Positions 8,076-48,039 of a DNA stretch of 64,000 nt are shown piece after piece; positions within the stretch are counted from its first letter, which is position 1, and every line of letters begins with the position of its first letter. The position numbers and the translations under genes were made by a program. This stretch comes from an uncultured bacterium (GTDB lineage Bacteria; Fidelibacterota; Marinisomatia; Marinisomatales; UBA1611), in assembly GCA_963933175.1 (NCBI GenBank), contig CAWVTW010000001.1, positions 143 through 64,142 of the forward strand. The letters are read 5' to 3'. The notes below the pieces were generated by a model. The model saw nothing but the letters and a program-made list of their open reading frames with translations, was not told the origin of the DNA and searched no databases.

Positions 8076-8879
8076 TTAGGGTTGGGATTGGATATAGGGA
8101 TTTGAGCCATATTGGGCGGGACATTCTTCCCAGTAATAGCACCAATTACATAAAATAGATTTTTTAGGAGGGAATTCGCTGCCATTACTTAATTTTTCCC
8201 GTATTTCATCTATAGAATTTTTAGTTTCATTGATGACTTTTCTTATGTCTTCATCAGTTCTTTTTGATTCCACTTTTATCCCATGCTGAATAAAATGCCA
8301 AACCAATGTCACGGATTTTATATTTTCAACCTCTGCCATAAGGCCAATTTGGTATAATGCTAATTGATGGTCTTTGTCTGCAGCCTTTTGAGATAAAGCA
8401 CGTTTTCCTGTTTTATAATCATGAATCTCCCAATTGCCTTTACCATCATGATCAACCCGATCAACAATACCTTTTATTTTATAATTTTTATCATCGTCCA
8501 AAAAAAATACCATTTCGTGCTCATTTGCCAGCACTGGTTCACCAAAAGGATGATTAAGCCTGTAAAAACGTGCGATGCATTCTTCTCCCAGATAAAAATA
8601 ATCCCGGGCAGTTTTATTCTGATAAACGATGGCAACGCGCTTATGCCACTTTTCTTTCCAAAGGGATTTATGAACTTTTAGTATTTCATCCACCACTGGA
8701 ATCACACCTGATTTGACCAGCTCGTACAGGTATTCGATAGATTCATGGACTCGTTTTCCTAGAAATGCTTCAATTCCTTCATCCTTTTTATATATTTGAT
8801 CAATATACCTGAATTTGAACTGTGCTGGACATTTCTTAAATGACTGAATACCGCTATGGGAAAAGCGTTCAAGAATCAT
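8076..8879 (-). CDS. PD-(D/E)XK nuclease, Cas4/AddB-like with Cys cluster
   Basis: 267 aa. The catalytic core is GIVDRVDHDGKGNWEIHDYKTGK (D..D/ExK) with QLALYQ downstream. One N-terminal Cys (KKCPAQF) and three C-terminal Cys (CNWCYYWEECP) are arranged as in Fe-S RecB-family exonucleases. Confidence 0.75.
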   Translation of the reverse strand: MILERFSHSGIQSFKKCPAQFKFRYIDQIYKKDEGIEAFLGKRVHESIEYLYELVKSGVIPVVDEILKVHKSLWKEKWHKRVAIVYQNKTARDYFYLGEECIARFYRLNHPFGEPVLANEHEMVFFLDDDKNYKIKGIVDRVDHDGKGNWEIHDYKTGKRALSQKAADKDHQLALYQIGLMAEVENIKSVTLVWHFIQHGIKVESKRTDEDIRKVINETKNSIDEIREKLSNGSEFPPKKSILCNWCYYWEECPAQYGSNPYIQSQP

Positions 8880-10183
8880 AGCCCTGCTCCCAAAAATGGA
8901 GTTTCCAATCGAAAATCCCCAAAACCATTCATATCCTTAAATATGAATTGTTTACTGATTTTATAATAGCTCCACGTTTGATATAATGCAGACGTGGACG
9001 TTGATGAATGTGTTCGCTGGATTTCATCTGGTGGACCAAATAGGACGTAGATCATTCCACGATCCGTTTCCCATCCAGGTTGCCAAGCATCAAAGTGTTC
9101 GTTTGCATACCAAACACGGCCATAATATTCTTCCATCAGTTCATTATATTCTGTTTCAGGTGTTGGATCTCTACTCTTCCAAAACAAATAAAATAGCTGT
9201 TCCTTATCCTTTTTTGATTTCTTTTTTAATTGAAGTCGTTCATCATTAGTCATCACATACTTCATTTGCCTTAGTGCCAGATCAATATTATAAACATAAT
9301 TAGATATGCCTGGTTTATAGGTTGAAAATGCGGTCTTTTTTATATCAGTTGAGCCATTTTGAGTCAGCACGATTTTAAAATCATTTTTCAAAGACTTTAA
9401 CTGATTGGCTGGGATAAATATATTTTCGTTGAAATATCCTAAGTCCCCGTATCCTGAAAATTGCATCATAAGTGAATCTATGGTAGTTCCATTTGATAAA
9501 TAAATATCCACATCAAATTCACCAGAATCAACAAACCCGGATACCTTTAAGTCTATACCATCCCCTATTTCTCGGACTCTAAATCCGTTTGTGGGAATTT
9601 TCCCTGTTTCAAACCCCCAATCTCCTTCCAGGTTTAATAAAAATATCGGAGGCATAAGTACGGGTAACTTAGAATATGCTTTAAAATTTAGTTTCTTTAC
9701 TCGGATACCCTTTTTCCGCGTGTCATTATCCTGTAACTCTCCAATGACTTCATACTTTCCACCGATAGGAATAGTAATAGTCGAATAATGTTTTCGATTT
9801 TTTTTACCAGATTTTGTAAAGGAATAATTACTGACCTTGATGGTATCTGTCCAAACTTGATGCCCTAAATCTTCACTGCTTTCCCCTCTCATTCCAATGG
9901 ATGCCTGATATCCACTTTTGAACTCATCTTTATCTTTCACAAACTGAAGTGAATAAAAGGGAATTTCGATAAAAGTGACAACTTTAATTGAATCTGAATG
10001 AATCGCCTCCGCAAATGGGACCAAAGCAAATTTTTCAACATTTGAATTCTTCTTTTTTGATCGCCCAATACTTTGGCCATTCAAGTTGCTACTTAACACA
10101 ACTAAAATGAATATAATAATATTTTTAATCACAGATCCCTCTTCCATTTGAATTTTACCAAACCTTGAGATGAGCCAAGCCAA
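8876..10183 (-). CDS. GWxTD domain-containing secreted protein
   Basis: The C-terminus FWKSRDPTPETEYNELMEEYYGRVWYANEHF..GWETDRGMIYVLFGPPDEI is the GWxTD-domain signature. The signal peptide begins at an internal Met (MEEGSVIKNIIIFILVVLSS), so the true start is probably 10147. Confidence 0.8.
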   Translation of the reverse strand: MAWLISRFGKIQMEEGSVIKNIIIFILVVLSSNLNGQSIGRSKKKNSNVEKFALVPFAEAIHSDSIKVVTFIEIPFYSLQFVKDKDEFKSGYQASIGMRGESSEDLGHQVWTDTIKVSNYSFTKSGKKNRKHYSTITIPIGGKYEVIGELQDNDTRKKGIRVKKLNFKAYSKLPVLMPPIFLLNLEGDWGFETGKIPTNGFRVREIGDGIDLKVSGFVDSGEFDVDIYLSNGTTIDSLMMQFSGYGDLGYFNENIFIPANQLKSLKNDFKIVLTQNGSTDIKKTAFSTYKPGISNYVYNIDLALRQMKYVMTNDERLQLKKKSKKDKEQLFYLFWKSRDPTPETEYNELMEEYYGRVWYANEHFDAWQPGWETDRGMIYVLFGPPDEIQRTHSSTSTSALYQTWSYYKISKQFIFKDMNGFGDFRLETPFLGAGL

Positions 10184-11757
10184 AGCGTTTTTCCATTTAA
10201 ATTCATTGCATTAACCTGCCCAATAAAAGGGAATGAATATTCCCGTGTAAACCCTGTTTTTTTATTGATCCGAACTAACCCGTTTTCGGTGCCAAGAAAA
10301 ATATGTTTTTGATTAACAGTAAGAGAATAGACAGTCTTTGCATGATATATAGTGGACGGGAAAATAAGTTCCCAAATACGTTCTTTCAAGTCAAATTTAG
10401 CAATACCCATCTCACACACCACATATACTACACGTTCAAATTCTTTTATTGCTGTAATTCGATTCATTAATTCCGGGAAATCTTTTCTACCAATATCCTT
10501 TGCCTGCCTAATCTGGGGGTTCTGTTGGTTAAATACAAATACACCGGATCTGGAACCTATCCAAATATCATCATCTACACCTTCGATATCATAAACAGGG
10601 ATATTAAAAAAAAGATTTTCAATCCCAATGGGAGATTCTCGCCGAGTTGCTCGTTCAATTCGTCGAAGACCAACAGATGAAGCGATCCAGATATAACTGG
10701 AATCACCATGTACATCCCAAATTACTCCAGATGGTACGCCACGCTCCTCTCCTAAAGTGCGCCAGTAATCATCTTTCATATCATAAACCAATATTATTCC
10801 CTTTCCACCAGCCCAAAGTTCACCATCGGAGACATGTATCGAATATACAGGAGTTGGGCTCATATTGATCGTCCCTTCAAATTCATAAACAAAGGATTCA
10901 TTAGATTGTGGGTTTAGCCATGAAACACCCTTGGATGAAACGAAATCAGAACTCCCAATCCATAAGGCATTTCCATCATCAAATAAGCCAACGACATCCG
11001 TATTAGAGATATCCAGTTTCATGGGGAAAAATGTTTCCATGGTTGTTGTACCATGGAAAAAGGTTCCATCTCCACCGCCAGCAAATACATTACCATGACG
11101 TGCTATCAAGCCAGTGGTGATTTCTACCCTACGGCCTAAATGGTCAATAAACTCATCTCCGTTAAGAATCCAACCATCCATAGCAGAATAATTCATGAAT
11201 ATTTCATGAAGATTGGATTGCCCAACATATTGTCCACTGCTCCAATGAATATCTAATTCGTCCGGCGTTGGATAAATCCCTACTAAAATACCGGAAGAGT
11301 GATCCAGCTTTACATAAGACGATCTTGCCTGAAGCCAAATATAATTGGCGCTGGATCCAATGCGATTAATCCTATCATTTCGTGAAAGTCCTAAATTTTG
11401 AAGTTCTTTGGCATACCAATCACCTTCTCTAGAAAATGAATATTGCACATAGTGCGGTGATGCAACCCAGATCAGTCCTGTTCCCAAATCAAAATGGGTG
11501 GCTGTCACTTGATTATCTTTAAGTCCTTGAGCAGTAGTAATGGGCTCTTCAAAATTATTACTATATAAATTGAACCGTTTTAACCCGCCCATCTCAGTGC
11601 CAATATACGCAAAAGTGAATCCTTCCGTGATAGATGATATAGAACCAGCGCCCCGGTACAAAACCCAATCAAATGGGCGAAACCGCGAATCGGGTTGGCC
11701 GTTCAGTTGAGAAAGTTGAGTAAAGAATAGAAAAAAGATTAGGGAACGAAATATCAT
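10129..11757 (-). CDS. secreted beta-propeller protein (two-component-regulator-propeller-like repeats)
   Basis: 542 aa with a signal peptide and many repeats of the pattern ..IW(I/V)(G/A)(S/T)..G(L/V).. (IWVAS, LWIGSS, LWAGGKG, IWIASSVGL, IWIGSRSGV, LWLGSSQGL). Confidence 0.55.
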   Translation of the reverse strand: MIFRSLIFFLFFTQLSQLNGQPDSRFRPFDWVLYRGAGSISSITEGFTFAYIGTEMGGLKRFNLYSNNFEEPITTAQGLKDNQVTATHFDLGTGLIWVASPHYVQYSFSREGDWYAKELQNLGLSRNDRINRIGSSANYIWLQARSSYVKLDHSSGILVGIYPTPDELDIHWSSGQYVGQSNLHEIFMNYSAMDGWILNGDEFIDHLGRRVEITTGLIARHGNVFAGGGDGTFFHGTTTMETFFPMKLDISNTDVVGLFDDGNALWIGSSDFVSSKGVSWLNPQSNESFVYEFEGTINMSPTPVYSIHVSDGELWAGGKGIILVYDMKDDYWRTLGEERGVPSGVIWDVHGDSSYIWIASSVGLRRIERATRRESPIGIENLFFNIPVYDIEGVDDDIWIGSRSGVFVFNQQNPQIRQAKDIGRKDFPELMNRITAIKEFERVVYVVCEMGIAKFDLKERIWELIFPSTIYHAKTVYSLTVNQKHIFLGTENGLVRINKKTGFTREYSFPFIGQVNAMNLNGKTLWLGSSQGLVKFKWKRDL

Positions 11758-29057: not shown

Positions 29058-29066
29058 CTTAACGAG

Positions 29067-29150
29067 TACCCGGGGCCGGACTCGAACCGGCACGTCCTTA
29101 CGGACAATGGATTTTAAGTCCATAGTGTCTACCAATTCCACCACCCGGGC
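29067..29150 (-). tRNA. tRNA-Leu (anticodon UAA), type II with long variable arm
   Basis: The reverse complement is gcccgggtggtggaattggtagacactATGGActtaaaaTCCATtgtccgtaaggacgtgccggttcgagtccggccccgggta. Acceptor, D, anticodon (loop CTTAAAA) and T arms (GTTCGAGTC) all fold. CCA is not encoded. Confidence 0.93.
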
Positions 29151-29162
29151 TTAAATAAAATG

Positions 29163-29236
29163 AGGCGTCGGCCGGATTCGAACCGGCGAATAACGGTTTT
29201 GCAAACCGGCCCCTTAGACCGCTTGGGTACGACGCC
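29163..29236 (-). tRNA. tRNA-Cys (anticodon GCA)
   Basis: The reverse complement is ggcgtcgtacccaagcggtctaaggggccggtttgcaaaaccgttattcgccggttcgaatccggccgacgcct. Acceptor is GGCGTCG/CGACGCC, anticodon loop TTGCAAA, T arm GCCGG-TTCGAAT-CCGGC. The U73 discriminator matches known tRNA-Cys. Confidence 0.9.
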
Positions 29237-39849: not shown

Positions 39850-41682
39850 ATGATTCCAAGTTCTAAATTCTTATCAAATTTTGGGATAATCATTATTGCC
39901 CTTTTCACCCTATCTTGTGAAACTGTGGAATTGCCCATCGCTGATACAACCCCACCGCAAGCCGTCTTAATATATCCTGTTGATGGCATATCCGTGGCAG
40001 GTGATATTACTGTTCTTGCACGTGCGACAGACAATGAAGAAGTTGATTCCGTACAGTTCTATATAAACCAAATAAAGGTTGGTACAGATAATTCTGGAGT
40101 AGATGATATTTTTGATTTTGAATGGAAAACTGGAGATTATACAGAGGATGAGTTTCATTTTGTATCTATCATTGCATATGATAAGGTACAAAATGCATAT
40201 GCATCTTTTCCAATCCGAATTAAAGCAGATAATCATGATAATGAACCCCCAACTGCATTTTTATTAAATCCATTCTCTGGACAATATGTGAGTGGAATCG
40301 TTAATATTACTGTTGAAGCATCCGATAATGACAGTATACAATATGTGAGTTATTATGTGAATAATGTTCTTCAGGGTTATGTTTTAGAGCCACCCTACAT
40401 TTTTCCATGGAATACTCTTTTGTATTTGGATGACCATTATTCTATTTATGCTCTCGTACGCGATATGAGCAACAATTTAACCACTGTTCCTCCTGTCAAC
40501 GTGATTATTGATAATAATCAACAAAATGATATAACTCCACCAACCGGTTCTATTGTCAGTCCACCCGCCGGATTAACCGTAAGCGGAAGCGTTGATATCA
40601 TTGTTAGTGCAAGTGATAATAGAGCTATGGATGAAGTCGCTTTTTCCATTGATGGTACTTACATCATATCGGATGGTGAAGCACCATACCATTATTCATG
40701 GGATACCACATTGGAAGAAGAAGATATAGAACATACTATCAGTGTTGTTTTGATAGATCTGGCTGGCAATGAATCTCCTTTAAACCCCATTTCTGTTTTT
40801 GTAGATAATGATCCAGCGGGAGATATAACACCGCCAATCGTATTGATCACGAATCCGGTGGCGGGTCAGGATTTAACTGGAACAGTTTCAATCGAAGTAT
40901 TAGCTGAAGATGATTTTGGCATGGATCGAGTTGAATTTTTTATCAATGGTGATTCTGTCCATACGGATACTTCTGATGCATTTAATTATATTTGGGACAC
41001 CGAGACAGTTACCGATGATATGGACCATATTATTGCAGTGGTTGGCTTTGATTTGGATGGGAATGCAACCCTTGCCCCGCCAATCGCAGTCTATGTAGAT
41101 AATTTTGATAATATTCATCCTACTGGTCAAATCCAAAACCCGGTTGCAGGACAAACAGTCACAGGGACAATCACGGTCGAAATTTCAGCCACAGATAATA
41201 TTGGTGTAGAACAAGTCAACTTGTCTATTGACGGTATTCCAAGAGACACTTTAACCACTTCCCCTTACACTTATGAATGGGATACAACAAGTGAGACCGA
41301 CGATGAAGATCATGTCATTAGTATCATTGTTTCTGATTCATCTGATAATATAAGCTATGTGCCTCCAGTGAGTGTTTTTGTAAATAATATCATTGATGAC
41401 ATCACACCGCCTGTTGTGTCTATCTCGAATCCTCTTTCCGGACAAACTGTGAGTGATACTGTTTCCTTTACAGTACAGGCAGTAGATGACTTTGGTGTGA
41501 ATAATGTTGAATTCTTTATCGATGGAGAATCAATTGGTACTGATTACACGGAACCTTATCAAATTGATTGGGACACAACGCCTTTGGAAAATGAAAGCCA
41601 GCATACTTTATCTGCGTACGTAACGGATGATGCAGGGCATACCACAATTGCTCAACCAATTCTCGTAACAATATCCAATTGA
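39850..41682 (+). CDS. surface lipoprotein with six Big_7-type bacterial Ig-like repeats
   Basis: Lipobox LFTLSCE. Six repeats of about 95 aa follow the pattern D(I/T)TPP...I..P..GQ.VSG.V.I.V.A.D..G...VEF.IDG.....D...PY.Y.WDT.......H.I......D..GN. Confidence 0.75.
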   Translation: MIPSSKFLSNFGIIIIALFTLSCETVELPIADTTPPQAVLIYPVDGISVAGDITVLARATDNEEVDSVQFYINQIKVGTDNSGVDDIFDFEWKTGDYTEDEFHFVSIIAYDKVQNAYASFPIRIKADNHDNEPPTAFLLNPFSGQYVSGIVNITVEASDNDSIQYVSYYVNNVLQGYVLEPPYIFPWNTLLYLDDHYSIYALVRDMSNNLTTVPPVNVIIDNNQQNDITPPTGSIVSPPAGLTVSGSVDIIVSASDNRAMDEVAFSIDGTYIISDGEAPYHYSWDTTLEEEDIEHTISVVLIDLAGNESPLNPISVFVDNDPAGDITPPIVLITNPVAGQDLTGTVSIEVLAEDDFGMDRVEFFINGDSVHTDTSDAFNYIWDTETVTDDMDHIIAVVGFDLDGNATLAPPIAVYVDNFDNIHPTGQIQNPVAGQTVTGTITVEISATDNIGVEQVNLSIDGIPRDTLTTSPYTYEWDTTSETDDEDHVISIIVSDSSDNISYVPPVSVFVNNIIDDITPPVVSISNPLSGQTVSDTVSFTVQAVDDFGVNNVEFFIDGESIGTDYTEPYQIDWDTTPLENESQHTLSAYVTDDAGHTTIAQPILVTISN

Positions 41683-44507
41683 TGAAATCTTTTAACCTAA
41701 ATATCATTTTAATTGCCATTCTGTCATTGAGTTGTGAAGGCCCCATGTTCAAAGTCCAAAAGGAACCCGATTCCATTCCTCCTACATTAACCATCACATT
41801 CCCACCTGATCAAGCAATCTTGTCTGATACAGTGCTTGTGTCGGCATATGCGTTTGATAATGTTGAATTAGGCATGGTGACTATGTATTTGAATGATTCT
41901 GTTATCATTTCAAGTAAAGACGCCCCCTACGAATACACATGGATCACGACCGATTATGCAGAAGATGAACAACATACTATTTGGGCCAAAGCAGAAGATG
42001 CTGCAGGTAATTTGACTCAAACCAATCCTATCCGCATATTAATCGATAATTTAGATAATATCAATCCAACCGGCACATTGATCTTCCCTTATACCGGTCA
42101 GACACTTTCTGGAGAAATCACTATTATTGTCGAAGCAAATGATAATGAAGAAGTTGCATTTGTGAATGTCTATATTGATGGTGATACCGTTGCCACGCTT
42201 ACTGAGTCTCCCTATACTTATAATTGGGATACATCGGTTGAAGTTGATGATATTACTTATACCATACACGTTCATATCCAGGATATAACAGGAAACCAGA
42301 TTACCCTCGGTCCAATCAGTGTATTAATTGATAATTATGAAGCTGATGATAATATCCCTCCAACAGGCACAATTATTCACCCACCTTCAGCAGCAACTGT
42401 TTCAGAAACTATTCTTATACAAGTTTCCGCATATGATAACGTTGAAATGGGCTTTGTAGATTTTATCATTGATGGATCCTTCGCAGGACAGGATTCAGTC
42501 TTACCTTATGAATATCTATGGAATACAACGGTAGAAGCTGAAGACGCAGAACATATTATTAATGTAAATCTTACCGATGCAGTCGGGAATACTACCGCTC
42601 TTTTCCCTGTTACGGTTCGTGTTAATAATATTGATGAACCAGATGTGATACCACCAAATGTGGTTATTTACGAACCAGCAGCCAATCAAACAGTTTCCGG
42701 TATGGTGAATATCACAGCAATCGCTTCTGATAATGTAAGCATCAACCGAATCGAGTTTTACCATAATTATGAATTAGAATTCTTAGTGACCTCTTACCCA
42801 TATCAATATGAATGGAATTCAACAACCGCTGAAGATGATTCTGAGCATATCTGGTATGTTAAAGCTTTTGATACCAGTGAGAATAATACACAAACACAAC
42901 CTATTGCCGTTTTTGTGGATAATGAAGATGATATTCCACCTACCGGTTTCATTCTTTATCCCTACGCCGGTCAAACGGTGAGCGGCGTTGTACAGATTCA
43001 GGTCTCAGTATCAGATAATTTAGGAATAGATCAAGTAGAATTTTTTATTGATGGTAATACGGTAGAAATTGATTCTGAATATCCTTATACCCACGATTGG
43101 AATACAGAATTAGCTGCAGAAGATGATGACCACGTCATTTCCATTACGATAACAGATTTAGGAGAAAACTCAACAGATGTCTCCCCTATTGCTGTTTTGG
43201 TTAATAATGTTGTCACACCAGAAGATGACACAACACCACCAGTGCTGGCAATACTTACACCCATTTCAAGTCAAACAGTTGGTGATACCGTTTTAATCTC
43301 TGGTTTTGCCATAGACAACATGGGAATTGCGGATGTGAAATTTTATGTGGATGATGAATTAGTAGCAACAGTAAGCGACTCTCCTTATACGCATAATTGG
43401 GTAACGTATGAACTATCTAACGGATCAGAACATGTGATACAAATGACTGCAAGTGATCTATCAGACAACTTAACAACCGCTCAACCGGTCGTTGTAACTG
43501 TTCAAAATGAATATTATGGAGCAATAGAGAACTTTTCATTATCTGTTTCAGAGGGAAATATCTCCTTGAGCTGGGATTCTCCATACAATGCTGAAACATT
43601 CAAAGTATATAGGGATAGCGTTTTCTTGGCTGAAATATCAGACCAAAGCTATGATGATACTATTGAGAGTGGGGTTGAGTATTGTTATCAAATTTCTGCA
43701 GTAAATAGTGTTGGGATCGAAGGTCCTGTATCCGAAGAAGAATGTGGTGTCCCGCAATTACCGGCTCCGGATTCTTTTAGTGCTACCATTAACGATACAA
43801 ATTTAACTCTGGTTTGGGCTGCAGTGAATAATGCATCCGGGTATATTTTATACCGTGATAATACAGAAATTTGGAATGGCACAGCCTTGACCTTGACAGA
43901 TTTGGGTTTGACTTATAATACCACATATATCTATAACGTGGTTGCCTTTGATTTTGATGGAACCAATGGTACAGAATCAGATCCTTTAAGTGTAACTATG
44001 CCTGAAGAACTCATCGCGCCTATTCTTTCAATTTATGTTTTAGGAACAGATGGATCTTTAAGTTGGACATCATTATCATCTGCAACAGCTTATCGAGTTC
44101 ATCAAGACAGCGTTTTTATTGTAGAAGTCACAACAACTAATTATGAGACTGAGTTAATCCACGGCGTTGAGACTTGCTTTACAGTCACTGCAATTAATGA
44201 TGTTGGTTCAGAGAGTGATTCATCCAATGTAGTATGCGGAACCGGAGATTTTACACCACCTGTTCTGTCTCTTTCAATCACTGAATCAACAATCACTGAA
44301 TCAACGGCTTCTCTTAGCTGGAATTCTGTGGTATCAGCAGAAACTTACAGAGTGTATCAGGATACTAATTTCCTGATCGAAGTTTCTGAAATAACATTAG
44401 ATCTTGAAATTCCTATTGATACAGAAACTTGTTTCGAGATCGAAGCTGTAAATAGTTATGGCACTACAAGCGATACTTCTAATGTAGAATGTGGGACTGG
44501 ATCTTAG
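41682..44507 (+). CDS. surface lipoprotein with six Big_7-type Ig-like repeats and four Fn3-like modules
   Basis: Lipobox LSLSCEG. Six Big_7-like repeats are followed by four modules of type ..SLSW......A..Y.VY(R/Q)D......(V/I)........D......CY/F.(V/I).A(V/I)N..G.(E/S)S. The ATG at 41682 overlaps the upstream TGA (TGATG). Confidence 0.75.
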   Translation: MKSFNLNIILIAILSLSCEGPMFKVQKEPDSIPPTLTITFPPDQAILSDTVLVSAYAFDNVELGMVTMYLNDSVIISSKDAPYEYTWITTDYAEDEQHTIWAKAEDAAGNLTQTNPIRILIDNLDNINPTGTLIFPYTGQTLSGEITIIVEANDNEEVAFVNVYIDGDTVATLTESPYTYNWDTSVEVDDITYTIHVHIQDITGNQITLGPISVLIDNYEADDNIPPTGTIIHPPSAATVSETILIQVSAYDNVEMGFVDFIIDGSFAGQDSVLPYEYLWNTTVEAEDAEHIINVNLTDAVGNTTALFPVTVRVNNIDEPDVIPPNVVIYEPAANQTVSGMVNITAIASDNVSINRIEFYHNYELEFLVTSYPYQYEWNSTTAEDDSEHIWYVKAFDTSENNTQTQPIAVFVDNEDDIPPTGFILYPYAGQTVSGVVQIQVSVSDNLGIDQVEFFIDGNTVEIDSEYPYTHDWNTELAAEDDDHVISITITDLGENSTDVSPIAVLVNNVVTPEDDTTPPVLAILTPISSQTVGDTVLISGFAIDNMGIADVKFYVDDELVATVSDSPYTHNWVTYELSNGSEHVIQMTASDLSDNLTTAQPVVVTVQNEYYGAIENFSLSVSEGNISLSWDSPYNAETFKVYRDSVFLAEISDQSYDDTIESGVEYCYQISAVNSVGIEGPVSEEECGVPQLPAPDSFSATINDTNLTLVWAAVNNASGYILYRDNTEIWNGTALTLTDLGLTYNTTYIYNVVAFDFDGTNGTESDPLSVTMPEELIAPILSIYVLGTDGSLSWTSLSSATAYRVHQDSVFIVEVTTTNYETELIHGVETCFTVTAINDVGSESDSSNVVCGTGDFTPPVLSLSITESTITESTASLSWNSVVSAETYRVYQDTNFLIEVSEITLDLEIPIDTETCFEIEAVNSYGTTSDTSNVECGTGS

Positions 44508-45259
44508 GGGAAAAACTTATCACCATCACAATCATTTAAAGAATGAACCAAATGAATTGTGTCATAATTACCAGAACTAAATGAGATTGTTCCCGAATCG
44601 GGATTAGAAAGGTTTATCGAATAATATTCAGGTAATCTATTATAATTGACAGTCTCAAGCCCTGAACTATCTTCATTAAATTCAAATACTGTATAATTAT
44701 AAATCATCCAGCCATTTCCTATCCAGTTTATGGAATCCAAATACGACTCCGAAGATAATGTCATTTCCGCAATCGTGTCAAACATTGATGACAATGTATC
44801 ATTACCCATATTCAGGTAGATTGTAGAAGGTATGCTATAATTGACCGGTTGGACACAAATTGTTATCGAATCATAATTTGAGAAAGTCCAATTCCCAGAT
44901 GGTTTATAACATTCAATGAAAATAGAGTCCGAAAATTCACCAGTATTTGTGGATTGATCTTTCGCTCTTATCTTATATCCAAATGATTCCTGCCAAATGA
45001 TTGTCGTATCTGAGAAAGATAAAACAGATGCACCTACTTTTGATAATGAGTCAAAAGACTGGCCCAAATCAGTAGTCCTGAATATATGGTATTCGCTTAC
45101 ATCATCTGATGCGGATTCATACCAGGTGATTTGAATTCTAGGGTTACCATTATTAAGCGTAAAAAAGCCTCGAAGTCCAGTCGGGTAATCTGGAGCATCT
45201 TCATCAATATCACAGCCTACAAATAATAAGAAAACAATTAAAAATATTTTACGGGTCAT
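44504..45259 (-). CDS. hypothetical lipoprotein with one Fn3-like module
   Basis: Lipobox LLFVGCD. The segment IQITWYESASDDVSEYHIFRT...FGYKIRAKDQSTNTGEFS is Fn3-like. It is convergent with the 942-aa gene. Confidence 0.5.
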   Translation of the reverse strand: MTRKIFLIVFLLFVGCDIDEDAPDYPTGLRGFFTLNNGNPRIQITWYESASDDVSEYHIFRTTDLGQSFDSLSKVGASVLSFSDTTIIWQESFGYKIRAKDQSTNTGEFSDSIFIECYKPSGNWTFSNYDSITICVQPVNYSIPSTIYLNMGNDTLSSMFDTIAEMTLSSESYLDSINWIGNGWMIYNYTVFEFNEDSSGLETVNYNRLPEYYSINLSNPDSGTISFSSGNYDTIHLVHSLNDCDGDKFFP

Positions 45260-45318: not shown

Positions 45319-45321
45319 ATG

Positions 45322-45394
45322 AGCGAGAGACGAGATTCGAACTCGCGACCCCCACGTTGGCAACGTGATGCTCTACCAGCTGAGCTACTCTCGC
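45322..45394 (-). tRNA. tRNA-Gly (anticodon GCC)
   Basis: The reverse complement is gcgagagtagctcagctggtagagcatcacgttgccaacgtgggggtcgcgagttcgaatctcgtctctcgct. It forms a cloverleaf with anticodon loop TTGCCAA and T loop TTCGAAT. Confidence 0.93.
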
Positions 45395-45448: not shown

Positions 45449-45898
45449 TTAGTCTGACAACGGAGTTTTTGGGAATAATTCGAAAAGTTTTTGCTGCCGC
45501 TGCCAAACCAAATAGGATGCACCAAGAAAAACTAAGTTTTCTAAAATTTTATTCCATCCTACCATTTCGCCTTCTTTTAACCCACAACCACATTCTATAT
45601 TAAATCCTCGAAGCGTGGCTTGAAAAATGAATAAAATGAATAGTGCCATCAAACCACCACTGATCATTGATGCACCATCTACCATCAAACCGGCAACCAA
45701 TCCAATGCCTATAAATAATTCTAACCATGGAATTATCAGGGCTATTAAATTTTCAAACCCCATGGGTATTAAATGATAATTGGCTATATCACGTGCAAAT
45801 TTCCCAGGATCAAGAATCTTATCATAACTTGCATAAATAAAAATAATCCCAAGTAGGATCCTTATTATAACGATTAGCCAAGGATGAAGTTTATTCAT
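45449..45898 (-). CDS. MauE/DoxX-family redox-associated membrane protein
   Basis: Four hydrophobic helices and the loop motif FNIECGCG, as in the MauE/DoxX family (recognised from memory). The ATG at 45898 overlaps the rhodanese stop by 8 nt. Confidence 0.65.
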   Translation of the reverse strand: MNKLHPWLIVIIRILLGIIFIYASYDKILDPGKFARDIANYHLIPMGFENLIALIIPWLELFIGIGLVAGLMVDGASMISGGLMALFILFIFQATLRGFNIECGCGLKEGEMVGWNKILENLVFLGASYLVWQRQQKLFELFPKTPLSD

Positions 45899-46373
45899 GT
45901 GTTTCAATTTCCAAGCCAGCATCCGTCCAGGATTTCCATCCTCCTTTGAAAACGAATATGTTCATAAATCCAAAATCTTGTAAATCATAGGCCAATTCTT
46001 TACTGGAACCACAATCATCATCGCTGCAATAGACCACGAACCCTTTTTCATATCCGATTAAATGCTCAATCTGTTCTGATAACAGTTCCACATCATCATT
46101 GGCTATGGCTCCTGGAATCATACCAGCCGGTAAGTATTCTTCTGCTCTGGCATCTACAAACAATAATCCTGTTCCGTGCAGTGATTTTGCCATTTCGAGA
46201 TCAATTTCTCGTATTTCCGGTTCTGATAAAGTTAATAATACATCATTGACATTCTTAACAACTTCTATTGGTTCAGCCATCCAGGATATGGCATCAGATC
46301 GAACCAAATTGGATATTAAGCCAACCAGAATAGAAACTGTTATAATGAATGTTACCTGTTGTTTTAAACTCAC
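45891..46373 (-). CDS. membrane-anchored single-domain rhodanese-like protein
   Basis: N-terminal TM helix (VTFIITVSILVGLISNLV). Rhodanese fold pattern LFVDARAEEEY..G.IPGA ... FVVYCSDDDCGSSKELA...GF.N..VF.GGW..W. Confidence 0.7.
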   Translation of the reverse strand: MSLKQQVTFIITVSILVGLISNLVRSDAISWMAEPIEVVKNVNDVLLTLSEPEIREIDLEMAKSLHGTGLLFVDARAEEYLPAGMIPGAIANDDVELLSEQIEHLIGYEKGFVVYCSDDDCGSSKELAYDLQDFGFMNIFVFKGGWKSWTDAGLEIETHE

Positions 46374-46397: not shown

Positions 46398-47603
46398 TTA
46401 ATGATCGTGGCCACTGTGATTTTGATTTTTCTTAGATATTGGTTTACCTTTTTTATTTGATTTGGATTTTGGTTTTGCGGTCTTAGGTTTCAATGAACTA
46501 CATGTAGCTAGAGATTCATCAACGAATGCCAATAGTTCCGGATTATCCTGAATTTTATTATTCAATGCAATTGTTTCAAATTTTAATGTATTCTGAGCTG
46601 ATTTTATCGCAGCTTCAGACTCTTTCAATTTGTTTCGATTTTGTTCAATAATTTTCAAAACGTTGGCCTGACCAGCATACAATTCGTCTAATGATTTATT
46701 TGGATCTTTCTTTTGCAGACGTTCAAATCTTTTTCGAATTGAAGAAATATTTTTTTCGTGGGAAGAGATATCAACGATTGGAGCTTTTTTATCCTCCATT
46801 TCGACACTTAATACAGACATATATTTACCTTGTTTACCACAGGAGTATAAGAAAGGTCCTCCCTCTTTTTGTCTCGTATTTTCCCGGGTCATATTTGTAC
46901 TTCCACTGGTCACAATGAAATCGGCATTTGCAAATAACGTTGGTAATTCACTATATGTTTTTCTATTACTGTTCACCATGATCACAATGATATCTGCTTG
47001 TTTGGACGCTTCATCTATATAATAATTCCCTGCTTCAATATAGTTATCAGCGATCATACTCTTGGTTGAATCGGGTAATTTATCTGTGACGCCCACAATT
47101 CCAATTTTCAGTAATCCCTTTTCAATAATTCGGAAAGGTTTAAATAATAGCTTATTAGTTTGTGGATCACGAAGATTGGCTGAGAGAAAAGGTATTTCAG
47201 TTTTTTCTTCCATACTTTTCAAAAATGGGAGTCCATTCAGCACTTCATAATGCCCTACATTGATAGCATCACAGCCAACTCTGTTATACCCTTCTAAGAT
47301 GGCAGCAGCACGATATAACTCTGATTTTTTATTGGTAGAATTTAAATTTGCAGTGCTGAAAAATAAATCTCCAGCATCAATAATCAGTGGATCGACCCCC
47401 GAATCACGGAGTTCATTCATTTTAACAAAACGTCTGGACAGACCGCCCAGAGGATTCTTTTTTCAGCCACACGGGTCTAGTTGACCATGAACACTGCCGG
47501 ACAACACAATTGTAACGGATCCGTATCCAGACACCTTTGAGCAAGATGAGAGAAACAGGAAAAACATGAGCGTAGTGATTGAATATTTTACCATAGATTT
47601 CAT
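46398..47603 (-). CDS. candidate selenocysteine-containing lipoprotein, degenerate metallophosphoesterase/5'-nucleotidase-like (read-through of TGA at complement 47463-47465)
   Basis: The track ORF 46398..47420 extends in the same frame to ATG 47603 or 47594 with a single TGA. The upstream part encodes the lipoprotein signal MFFLFLSSC and VTIVLSGSVHGQLDPCG-U-KKNPLGGLSRRFVK. A SECIS-like hairpin lies 11 nt after the TGA. GD motif IIDAGDLF is present, but motifs I and III are degenerate. Confidence 0.6.
47433..47451 (-). promoter_or_regulatory. putative bacterial SECIS stem-loop
   Basis: The mRNA reads UGA-AAAAAGAAUCC-UCUGGGC-GGUCU-GUCCAGA, a 7-bp stem (one G.U pair) with a 5-nt loop. The loop G and U fall at +23 and +24 from the U of UGA, as in E. 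coli fdhF. Confidence 0.55.
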
Positions 47604-47609
47604 TTATTT

Positions 47610-47933
47610 TTATCCGCCACTGAGTTTGACAGAATATCCTTTTTTTATTAATAATTTTTGAATTTTTTCACGTTTATTCCCCTGGATCAAAATTTCTCCA
47701 TTCTTAACCGATCCACCAACACCACATCCACTTTTTAACTCTTTTGCTATAACCATTAGAACATCAATTGTTTCTTGTAAACCTCTCACGATAGAAACAA
47801 CTTTACCTCCTCCTTTCCTATCCAAATGAAGACGAATTTGTTGCTGAGATGGGTCTAGAATAGGACTGATTTCTGTTTCATTTTTCAATGAAACTCCTTG
47901 ATCTGTGGAGTAGATAAGTTTTGAATTAGTCAT
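47610..47933 (-). CDS. yciH: SUI1/YciH-family translation initiation factor
   Basis: IRLHLDRKGGGKVVSIVRGL...LKSGCGVGGSVKNGEILIQGNKREKI...G..VKLSGG is the SUI1 domain pattern. The start is placed at MTNSKLIY. Confidence 0.85.
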   Translation of the reverse strand: MTNSKLIYSTDQGVSLKNETEISPILDPSQQQIRLHLDRKGGGKVVSIVRGLQETIDVLMVIAKELKSGCGVGGSVKNGEILIQGNKREKIQKLLIKKGYSVKLSGG

Positions 47934-48039
47934 AATTGTTCTTTCAGAACAAATAAAGAACAAAATTGTTCCCTTTTACAAGGTGAAAACATACTAATTT
48001 TTTGAAGTAATTAAACAACTACAATTCAGTGGAAATGAA

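Follow-up and report, generated by a model that had tools for sequence, protein, structure and literature searches.

A family of UshA-like proteins (COG0737) that carry selenocysteine (Sec, U) in a CxU motif was counted as previously known in a survey of the Global Ocean Sampling (GOS) ocean metagenomes, with 76 Sec and 92 Cys sequences (Zhang & Gladyshev 2008, PMC2398784), and is also listed in two reviews (PMC9312934, PMC13188914). NCBIfam models the family as NF041198 (UshA_like_PCGU, 'UshA-like (seleno)protein'). As for the decoding signal, the reference is the selenocysteine insertion sequence (SECIS) of Escherichia coli fdhF, whose string TGACACGGCCCATCGGTTGCAGGTCTGCACC... is 100% identical in 5419 of 5426 E. 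coli genomes, and whose verified 42 nt read TGA-CACGGCCCATC-GGTTGCAGGTCTGCACC.... The locus compared here lies on the minus strand at 46398-47603 of a 64,000-nt stretch of DNA from an uncultured bacterium of the Fidelibacterota (assembly GCA_963933175.1, contig CAWVTW010000001.1, positions 143 to 64,142), hereafter the window, whose coordinates are used throughout. It is well supported that this region is a single gene for a 401-residue selenocysteine lipoprotein of the UshA-like 'PCGU / CxU' family, in a short haem-less form typical of Marinimicrobia (SAR406). The overall explanation, which combines a Sec lipoprotein, UGA/SECIS decoding, a dead phosphatase fold, and a proposed redox mechanism, is given a probability of roughly 0.85. 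It is not a new kind of selenoprotein, the family having been predicted since at least 2008 and modelled as NF041198; modestly new are the short haem-less subgroup below the NF041198 cut-off and its conserved partnership with rhodanese and MauE genes.

According to a base-by-base check, the minus-strand frame from ATG 47603 to TAA 46398-46400 is broken solely by the TGA at 47465-47463, with ATG 47594 as an alternative start codon. This is exactly the TGA-interrupted frame that the earlier note, made from the letters of this DNA, had described. The mechanical list of open reading frames (ORFs) splits the gene within this frame into a 46-aa ORF (47463-47603), which terminates at the TGA, and a 340-aa ORF (46398-47420, MNELRDSG...). 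Read through, the product has 401 residues, MKSMVKYSITTLMFFLFLSSCSKVSGYGSVTIVLSGSVHGQLDPCG-U-KKNPLGGLSRRFVKMNELRDSG..., and the codon stands in the context ...SGSVHGQLDPCG-U47-KKNPLGGLSRR.... The lipoprotein signal peptide proposed upstream of the TGA is real as well: read by eye from the sequence, the lipobox FLFLSSC with Cys21 fits [LVI][ASTVI][GAS]C, and full-length orthologues likewise show a Cys behind a hydrophobic N-terminus. The protein would be exported and lipidated at Cys21. At the other end, the His-rich terminus H-x-G-H-[DN]-H is common to many short forms, including the distant P0137, P0149, P0151, and P0181, and is predicted to be disordered in the AlphaFold2 (AF2) model of the orthologue P0005, with a predicted local distance difference test score (pLDDT) below 50.

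Regarding the TGA itself, a protein search returned 396 relatives, and a locus scan with the peptide pattern [VM]HGQLDPC was run on one genome per species; the pattern lies upstream of the codon and thus introduces no bias on what follows it. The scan gave 66 loci, most of them in Marinimicrobia/Neomarinimicrobiota or Fidelibacterota genomes and the rest in unclassified uncultured-bacterium metagenome-assembled genomes (MAGs), which together with metagenomic contigs and the window form a set of 72. In 72 of 72 loci the invariant HGQLDPCG is followed by TGA and the frame is kept downstream, at 34–99% protein identity to the query, with residues K/P-K-N/K-P-L-G-G-L after the codon. As the TGA recurs in 72 independent assemblies, both an error of assembly and a private, strain-specific nonsense mutation are excluded.

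If the TGA were a true stop, the gene would be either a pseudogene or one that starts at MNELRDSG, and the 46 codons upstream would be non-coding or a separate small ORF. Gene callers and most of the 396 database relatives (329–352 aa, with the N-terminus just past the TGA) agree with such a start, as does the failure to find Sec machinery in the window and 896 kb of related loci. The few full-length database relatives, however, read 'DPCGWKKNP', and the DNA there has TGA where W is printed, in the manner of a genetic code 4 call; database orthologues with Trp at the Sec column are P0005, P0015-17, P0087, P0089, and P0102. Homologues that genuinely begin at MNELRDSG were thus not seen, and the short entries are truncations at the TGA. 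Moreover, the segment before the TGA is conserved as protein (HGQLDPCG is invariant) while its synonymous sites vary, and both the signal peptide and the first strand of the fold's core lie in it; the TGA and the frame are retained in the whole set down to 34% identity, and distant homologues have a Cys codon in place of the TGA. The comparative data already contradict a true stop, which is very improbable. Among the database entries, P0064 and P0121 look chimeric, the UshA-like domain being fused to unrelated sequence on its N- or C-terminal side.

About 9,700 members of the family were recovered when 1.84 billion representative proteins were searched with a profile. Among those covering the Sec column, 36 have Cys (CGC) and 31 a TGA-derived W, and TGT (Cys) was confirmed at this column in the DNA of two Cys forms, L072 and L073. 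At the aligned column, then, homologues carry TGA or Cys, both in the 72 loci and among distant members. A further reading is that the organism uses another genetic code (table 4 or 25), in which TGA would specify Trp or Gly, as the W printed by several public pipelines at the Sec position of orthologues would imply. Because TGA ends 13 of the 47 long ORFs in the window, several of them in typical 4-nt stop/start overlaps, the standard code applies and an alternative code is excluded. In addition, no other credible gene with an in-frame TGA was found in the 64-kb window, the homologues that lack the TGA have Cys rather than Trp or Gly at the column, and a conserved hairpin follows the codon, so that a sense codon deserves practically no credence. 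On the comparative evidence selenocysteine is the only reasonable reading of the TGA, and the 'stop' codon inside the gene almost certainly encodes it. The selenocysteine interpretation made from the letters of the window is supported by the Sec/Cys column, the conserved TGA, and the covarying hairpin. Of the checks put forward in the earlier note, each that was run turned out in favour of this interpretation.

As for this hairpin, the TGA is followed by an 11-nt spacer (47462-47452), a 5' arm (47451-47445), a loop (47444-47440), and a 3' arm (47439-47433). The structure UCUGGGC-GGUCU-GUCCAGA forms in RNAfold and has a free energy of −9.2 kcal/mol when folded alone, and the position, stem, and loop had all been given exactly by the earlier note. 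Only the length of its 7-bp stem needs revision: all seven pairs are present in the window, but the outermost U-A pair is unpaired in 42 of 65 sequences, and therefore the conserved element consists of 6 bp and the GGUCU loop. The covariation alignment comprises 68 sequences (65 distinct) and spans the TGA with 6 nt of upstream and 45 nt of downstream sequence. Within it, the proposed stem is 87% paired, versus 24–51% when the partner is slid by 1–3 columns, and the covariation score equals 0.231, compared with 0.117±0.009 for shuffles (the value is reached by 0 of 500) and 0.01–0.11 for the slid controls. Pair 24-36, which joins the third positions of a Leu and a Ser codon, is GC in 34 sequences, AU in 18, GU in 6, UA in 4, CG in 2, and UG in 1, and is never unpaired. 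Two distant Sec forms, one short and 27% identical (L075), the other long and tetrahaem (L076), likewise have GGUCU at nt 22-26, at the same distance.

Such a hairpin could in principle be a by-product of the conserved peptide PLGGLSR, with no function as RNA and any read-through achieved by another route. GG[LV]AR is indeed an old motif of the 5'-nucleotidase family, present in CD73 too, but the peptide does not force the codons GGC-GGU-CUG, whose third positions (loop and closing pair) hold a single base in 65/65, 64/65, and 64/65 sequences, respectively, whereas the Gly codon just 5' of the UGA uses all four bases (C24/T17/A17/G7). The paired covariation of the Leu and Ser third positions also speaks against a by-product. 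The Cys forms give evidence on both sides: L072 has GGA GGA codons and has lost the hairpin, while L073 (4001-5122), with TGT, shows a similar SECIS-like CUUGGC-GGUCU-UGCCAAG directly past its Cys codon, perhaps left over from a recent replacement of Sec by Cys. Altogether, a mere by-product is highly improbable, and the 6-bp stem with the GGUCU loop is under selection as RNA. A further string that almost matches the apex of the E. coli fdhF SECIS, GGTTGCAGGTCTGCAGG in L064 (about 8448-8481), 14 nt past a TGA triplet, was considered as another Sec site and rejected as chance; the real frame there differs (EYVIGNTTVAGLQELS) and belongs to an ordinary gene.

According to family profiles, the best match of the window protein is NF041198 (E = 3.8e-66, residues 11-398), and its P-C-G-U/C motif is found as DPCG-UGA. 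Marinimicrobia orthologues score 174–214 bits against this profile, and members above the curated cut-off, P0201, P0259, and P0262 among them, 342–531 bits. The latter are about 520–540 aa long (the P0201 entry is cut at the TGA). Four CXXCH motifs are present in each of P0201, P0217, P0227, P0259, and P0262, and the C-terminal domain of the long members P0201, P0259, and P0262 corresponds to Pfam Cytochrome_C554 (cytochrome c554-like, tetrahaem). The window protein contains no CXXCH, and both it and its Marinimicrobia orthologues lack the tetrahaem domain and end in the short His-rich tail instead. A Pfam scan of the window protein at E <= 0.1 reported no family, thus neither Metallophos nor 5_nucleotid_C. 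A second Sec clade, paralogous and with PKKP/KKKP past the UGA, shares genomes with the window-type gene, for example JABHKE01 (L046 and L050).

Regarding the fold, P0005, an orthologue with 65% identity, was modelled by AF2 with a pLDDT of 86.8, and the model places the first core beta-strand (residues 28-35) upstream of the UGA. The top Foldseek matches of this model are the N-terminal metallophosphatase domains of UshA and CD73 (E about 1e-18, template modelling score 0.5–0.6, 14–19% identity), and sequence searches of the PDB agree that these are the best solved relatives. The model has no C-terminal substrate-binding domain and shows a helical and small-sheet C-terminal region instead. 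Of the metal-ligand and catalytic motifs, DxH, GD, GNH[ED], and the catalytic Asp were mapped at the level of single residues. In the alignment to CD73 and venom 5'-nucleotidase the Asp of motif I is replaced by Ser37, with His39 and DAGD retained, and GNHEFD becomes GHYEVL, that is, the ligand Asn becomes His, the catalytic His becomes Tyr, and the catalytic Asp becomes Leu. Motifs I and III had been called degenerate before, and the alignment confirms it. Across the wider family the metal-ligand columns are not conserved, whereas P-C-G-U/C is.

A selenoprotein with this fold might still be an ordinary metal-dependent 5'-nucleotidase or SoxB-like hydrolase in which Cys and Sec are extra metal ligands only. 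In favour of such an enzyme, the best solved relatives of the window protein are UshA and CD73, there are weak SoxB matches (E = 5.6e-11), and His39 and Asp79 are kept in the Marinimicrobia clade. Against it stand the lack of Pfam Metallophos and 5_nucleotid_C matches, the absence of the substrate-binding domain from the model, the substitution of the motif I Asp, of Asn-His in motif III, and of the catalytic Asp, and the family-wide variation of the ligand columns. An ordinary hydrolase is accordingly improbable. With these residues replaced, phosphoesterase activity is not expected, and the protein appears instead to keep the fold of a phosphatase but not its chemistry, its centre having moved to Cys-Gly-Sec.

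The features of the locus and its surroundings are collected in Table 1.

Table 1. Annotated features of the candidate selenoprotein locus (window coordinates)
Feature	Position	Strand	Basis and remarks
Complete predicted selenoprotein gene	46398..47603	minus	Translation; 401 codons + TAA, single in-frame UGA
UGA, predicted Sec residue 47 of the C45-G46-U47 motif	47463..47465	minus	TGA column comparison across loci
Lipoprotein signal peptide MKSMVKYSITTLMFFLFLSS, lipobox L-S-S-C	47541..47603	minus	Read from sequence; Cys21 at 47541-47543
C-terminal His-rich tail HSGHDH	46401..46418	minus	H-x-G-H-[DN]-H terminus recurring in homologues
Putative SECIS hairpin, 7-bp stem, GGUCU loop at 47440-47444	47433..47451	minus	Folding, covariation; conserved core 47434-47450, 6 bp
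Rhodanese-domain protein, N-terminal membrane anchor, motif YCxxDxCGSSE	45891..46373	minus	Pfam Rhodanese E = 1.9e-10
MauE/DoxX-family membrane protein, invariant CGCGL	45449..45922	minus	Pfam MauE 3e-27, DoxX 1.7e-08
SUI1/YciH-like gene (translation-initiation-factor homologue)	47610..47963	minus	Pfam SUI1 5.2e-17 and TIGR01158
tRNA-Gly(GCC), directly after the MauE gene	45321-45394	minus	
tRNA-Leu(TAA)/tRNA-Cys(GCA) pair	29066-29236	minus	

The genes are tightly packed on the minus strand: SUI1/YciH, a 6-nt gap, the selenoprotein gene, a 24-nt gap, the rhodanese gene, a 32-nt overlap, and MauE/DoxX. Directly downstream of the orthologue in related loci, the rhodanese is found in 46 and MauE in 43, and both are kept in the most divergent loci (34–40% identity), which have lost SUI1. 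Both Cys residues of the rhodanese motif YCxxDxCGSSE (CX4C) are invariant in 46/46 sequences, and the CGCGL of MauE is invariant in 45/45. SUI1/YciH adjoins the orthologue in 49 related loci. It was rejected as a functional partner, being lost from divergent loci that retain rhodanese and MauE, and its adjacency is probably synteny and no part of a functional module. In a marine metagenome contig with the 27%-identical Sec form (L075, 209-2312) the order is rhodanese, MauE, UshA-like, and the Cys pair of its rhodanese is spaced differently (FCDGEEAGC). The association survives this rearrangement, and the occurrence of the same three genes there in changed order points to a functional linkage rather than inherited synteny.

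The paralogous Sec clade has no rhodanese or MauE neighbours. In L042 and L045 the paralogous UshA-like genes (about 9960-11050 and about 9040-10077, respectively) are preceded by genes for a TlpA-like thioredoxin-fold protein with WCKPC (9233-9901 and 8366-8974, respectively). As for the long tetrahaem form, neither rhodanese nor MauE was found near L076, the single long form with an informative neighbourhood. Further along the window, a plus-strand gene at 41679-44507 encodes a 942-aa protein with many modules of about 90 aa and a recurring 'PYxYxWNT', apparently immunoglobulin- or fibronectin type III-like surface repeats. A 251-aa lipoprotein-like ORF on the minus strand (44504-45259) abuts this gene and is syntenic in 18 related loci.

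A mechanism is proposed on this basis. The UGA at 47465-47463 would be recoded as Sec, the hairpin 11–12 nt downstream recruiting SelB-GTP-Sec-tRNASec to the ribosome; SelB-dependent insertion of Sec at the window UGA is inferred from the comparison with fdhF. The working site would be the invariant C45-G-U47, which may either switch between selenenylsulfide and selenol-thiol states or serve as a binding site for a metal or chalcogen substrate. The co-transcribed neighbours, a membrane-anchored CX4C rhodanese and the CGC MauE/DoxX membrane protein, would exchange electrons (or sulfur) with the selenoprotein, and in the long relatives the fused tetrahaem cytochrome c domain would take the role of this pair. 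The cluster of selenoprotein, CX4C rhodanese, and CGC MauE/DoxX thus suggests a periplasmic selenol/thiol redox relay. More specifically, and only tentatively, the short haem-less UshA-like selenoprotein and its two partners may form an undescribed periplasmic selenol/thiol redox module characteristic of Marinimicrobia, in which a dead 5'-nucleotidase scaffold, re-tooled around Cys-Gly-Sec and possibly aided by the His-rich tail, processes a chalcogen or metal substrate and membrane partners replace the tetrahaem domain. The literature searched held no paper that connects a selenoprotein with MauE and rhodanese.

Several results weigh against the selenoprotein explanation as a whole. Folded as 76 nt, the window sequence does no better than its shuffles (z = 0.40); the window by itself therefore does not prove the hairpin, the single-sequence fold was not used as evidence, and the case for the hairpin rests on comparison with relatives. 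No Rfam family recognises it: the gathering-threshold scan of the window reported three tRNAs only and no SECIS family, and the permissive scan of 47350-47520 gave only chance matches to small RNA families. The machinery for Sec insertion was sought in the window and in related Marinimicrobia loci totalling 896 kb. ARAGORN found 59 tRNAs and no tRNA-Sec there, SelA and SelD were not found by tblastn with E. coli query sequences, and the only SelB match, a GTPase in L011, was rejected as a 609-aa TypA/BipA-like protein. Since only about ±10 kb around each homologue was covered, this absence is uninformative, and the organism is assumed to possess the machinery. According to a 2016 survey, the sole literature hint found on Sec use in Marinimicrobia, SAR406 single-cell genomes were listed only as holders of 'orphan SelD' (PMC5029168). 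With 223.7 bits against NF041198, the window protein stays under the curated cut-off (275), and the match spans profile positions 4-407 of 519. Finally, the redox relay is based on motif conservation and gene neighbourhood only, and the searched literature contains no experimental study of any family member.

Both the ORF track and most public entries annotate the gene wrongly, some entries being truncated past the TGA and others having a spurious Trp; NCBI MAG orthologues are labelled 'hypothetical protein', and NF041198 misses the Marinimicrobia form, which scores under its cut-off. Once the annotation is corrected, the probable active site is regained together with the signal peptide and the lipidation site. 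The case provides an example of a SECIS that covaries cleanly across a family inside a coding region, as well as of a phosphatase fold that appears to have lost its chemistry and gained Cys-Gly-Sec, and it indicates conserved partners (rhodanese, MauE/DoxX) for a never-characterised selenoprotein family in a highly abundant uncultured marine phylum. The general concept of selenocysteine decoding is unchanged.

In comparison with known systems, the hairpin is closest to the fdhF SECIS. The spacing (UGA-N11) and the GGUCUG string that the earlier note gave for fdhF proved right in the E. coli genomes: in both elements the UGA is followed by 11 nt and then the stem, GGUCUG occupies nt 22-27, and G23 and U24 of the window are equally far from the UGA. 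However, the window has a pentaloop GGUCU closed by C-G, whereas in fdhF an A-U pair closes a GGUC tetraloop; no bulged U (U17 of fdhF) interrupts the window stem, and its family lacks a conserved extended lower helix.

Regarding the protein, UshA and CD73 (PDB 1ush, 4h2i, and others) share with it the N-terminal calcineurin-like metallophosphatase fold and the motifs DAGD, SAN, and GG[LV]xR. They differ in retaining the Asp of DxH (Ser in the window protein), GNHEFD (GHYEVL), and a C-terminal nucleotide-binding domain, and CD73 has the Cys-segment KCVNASRC in the loop where the window protein has Cys-Gly-Sec. The SoxB thiosulfohydrolase (TIGR04486) belongs to the same superfamily, is periplasmic, and acts on sulfur compounds, but the homology is weak, the window protein reaching 41 bits versus a cut-off of 550. 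SoxB keeps its dimanganese ligands, which are lost in the window protein. Family 2 of the UshA-like selenoproteins (NF049981) is likewise a Sec-containing offshoot of the same fold, weakly matched (E = 5.5e-08); in contrast, it has a CxxU motif and a shorter profile (262 positions), and the window protein scores 32.6 against a cut-off of 140.

Turning to the pair of genes downstream, methylamine dehydrogenase requires MauE for its disulfides to form, and the mycobacterial DoxX has a rhodanese as its partner; DoxX, SseA (the rhodanese), and SodA form a membrane oxidoreductase complex of Mycobacterium tuberculosis that acts in thiol redox homeostasis. Set beside the window genes by description, this complex offers a functional analogy, with a DoxX/MauE-type membrane protein and a rhodanese in both, but the window system is built around a predicted selenoprotein lipoprotein and its rhodanese is CX4C. 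NF041198 remains the closest described family. In both, the PCG-U/C motif follows the first beta-strand at the same place; the matched profile positions take in the degenerate N-domain of 5'-nucleotidase type and the helical region behind it, and the bona fide member L076 has the same UGA-SECIS arrangement. In contrast to its members of about 520–540 aa, the window protein has about 400 aa, lacks the last approximately 110 profile positions with the four CXXCH, and ends in the His-rich tail, and the window-type gene is linked to rhodanese and MauE, neither of which stands beside the long form examined.

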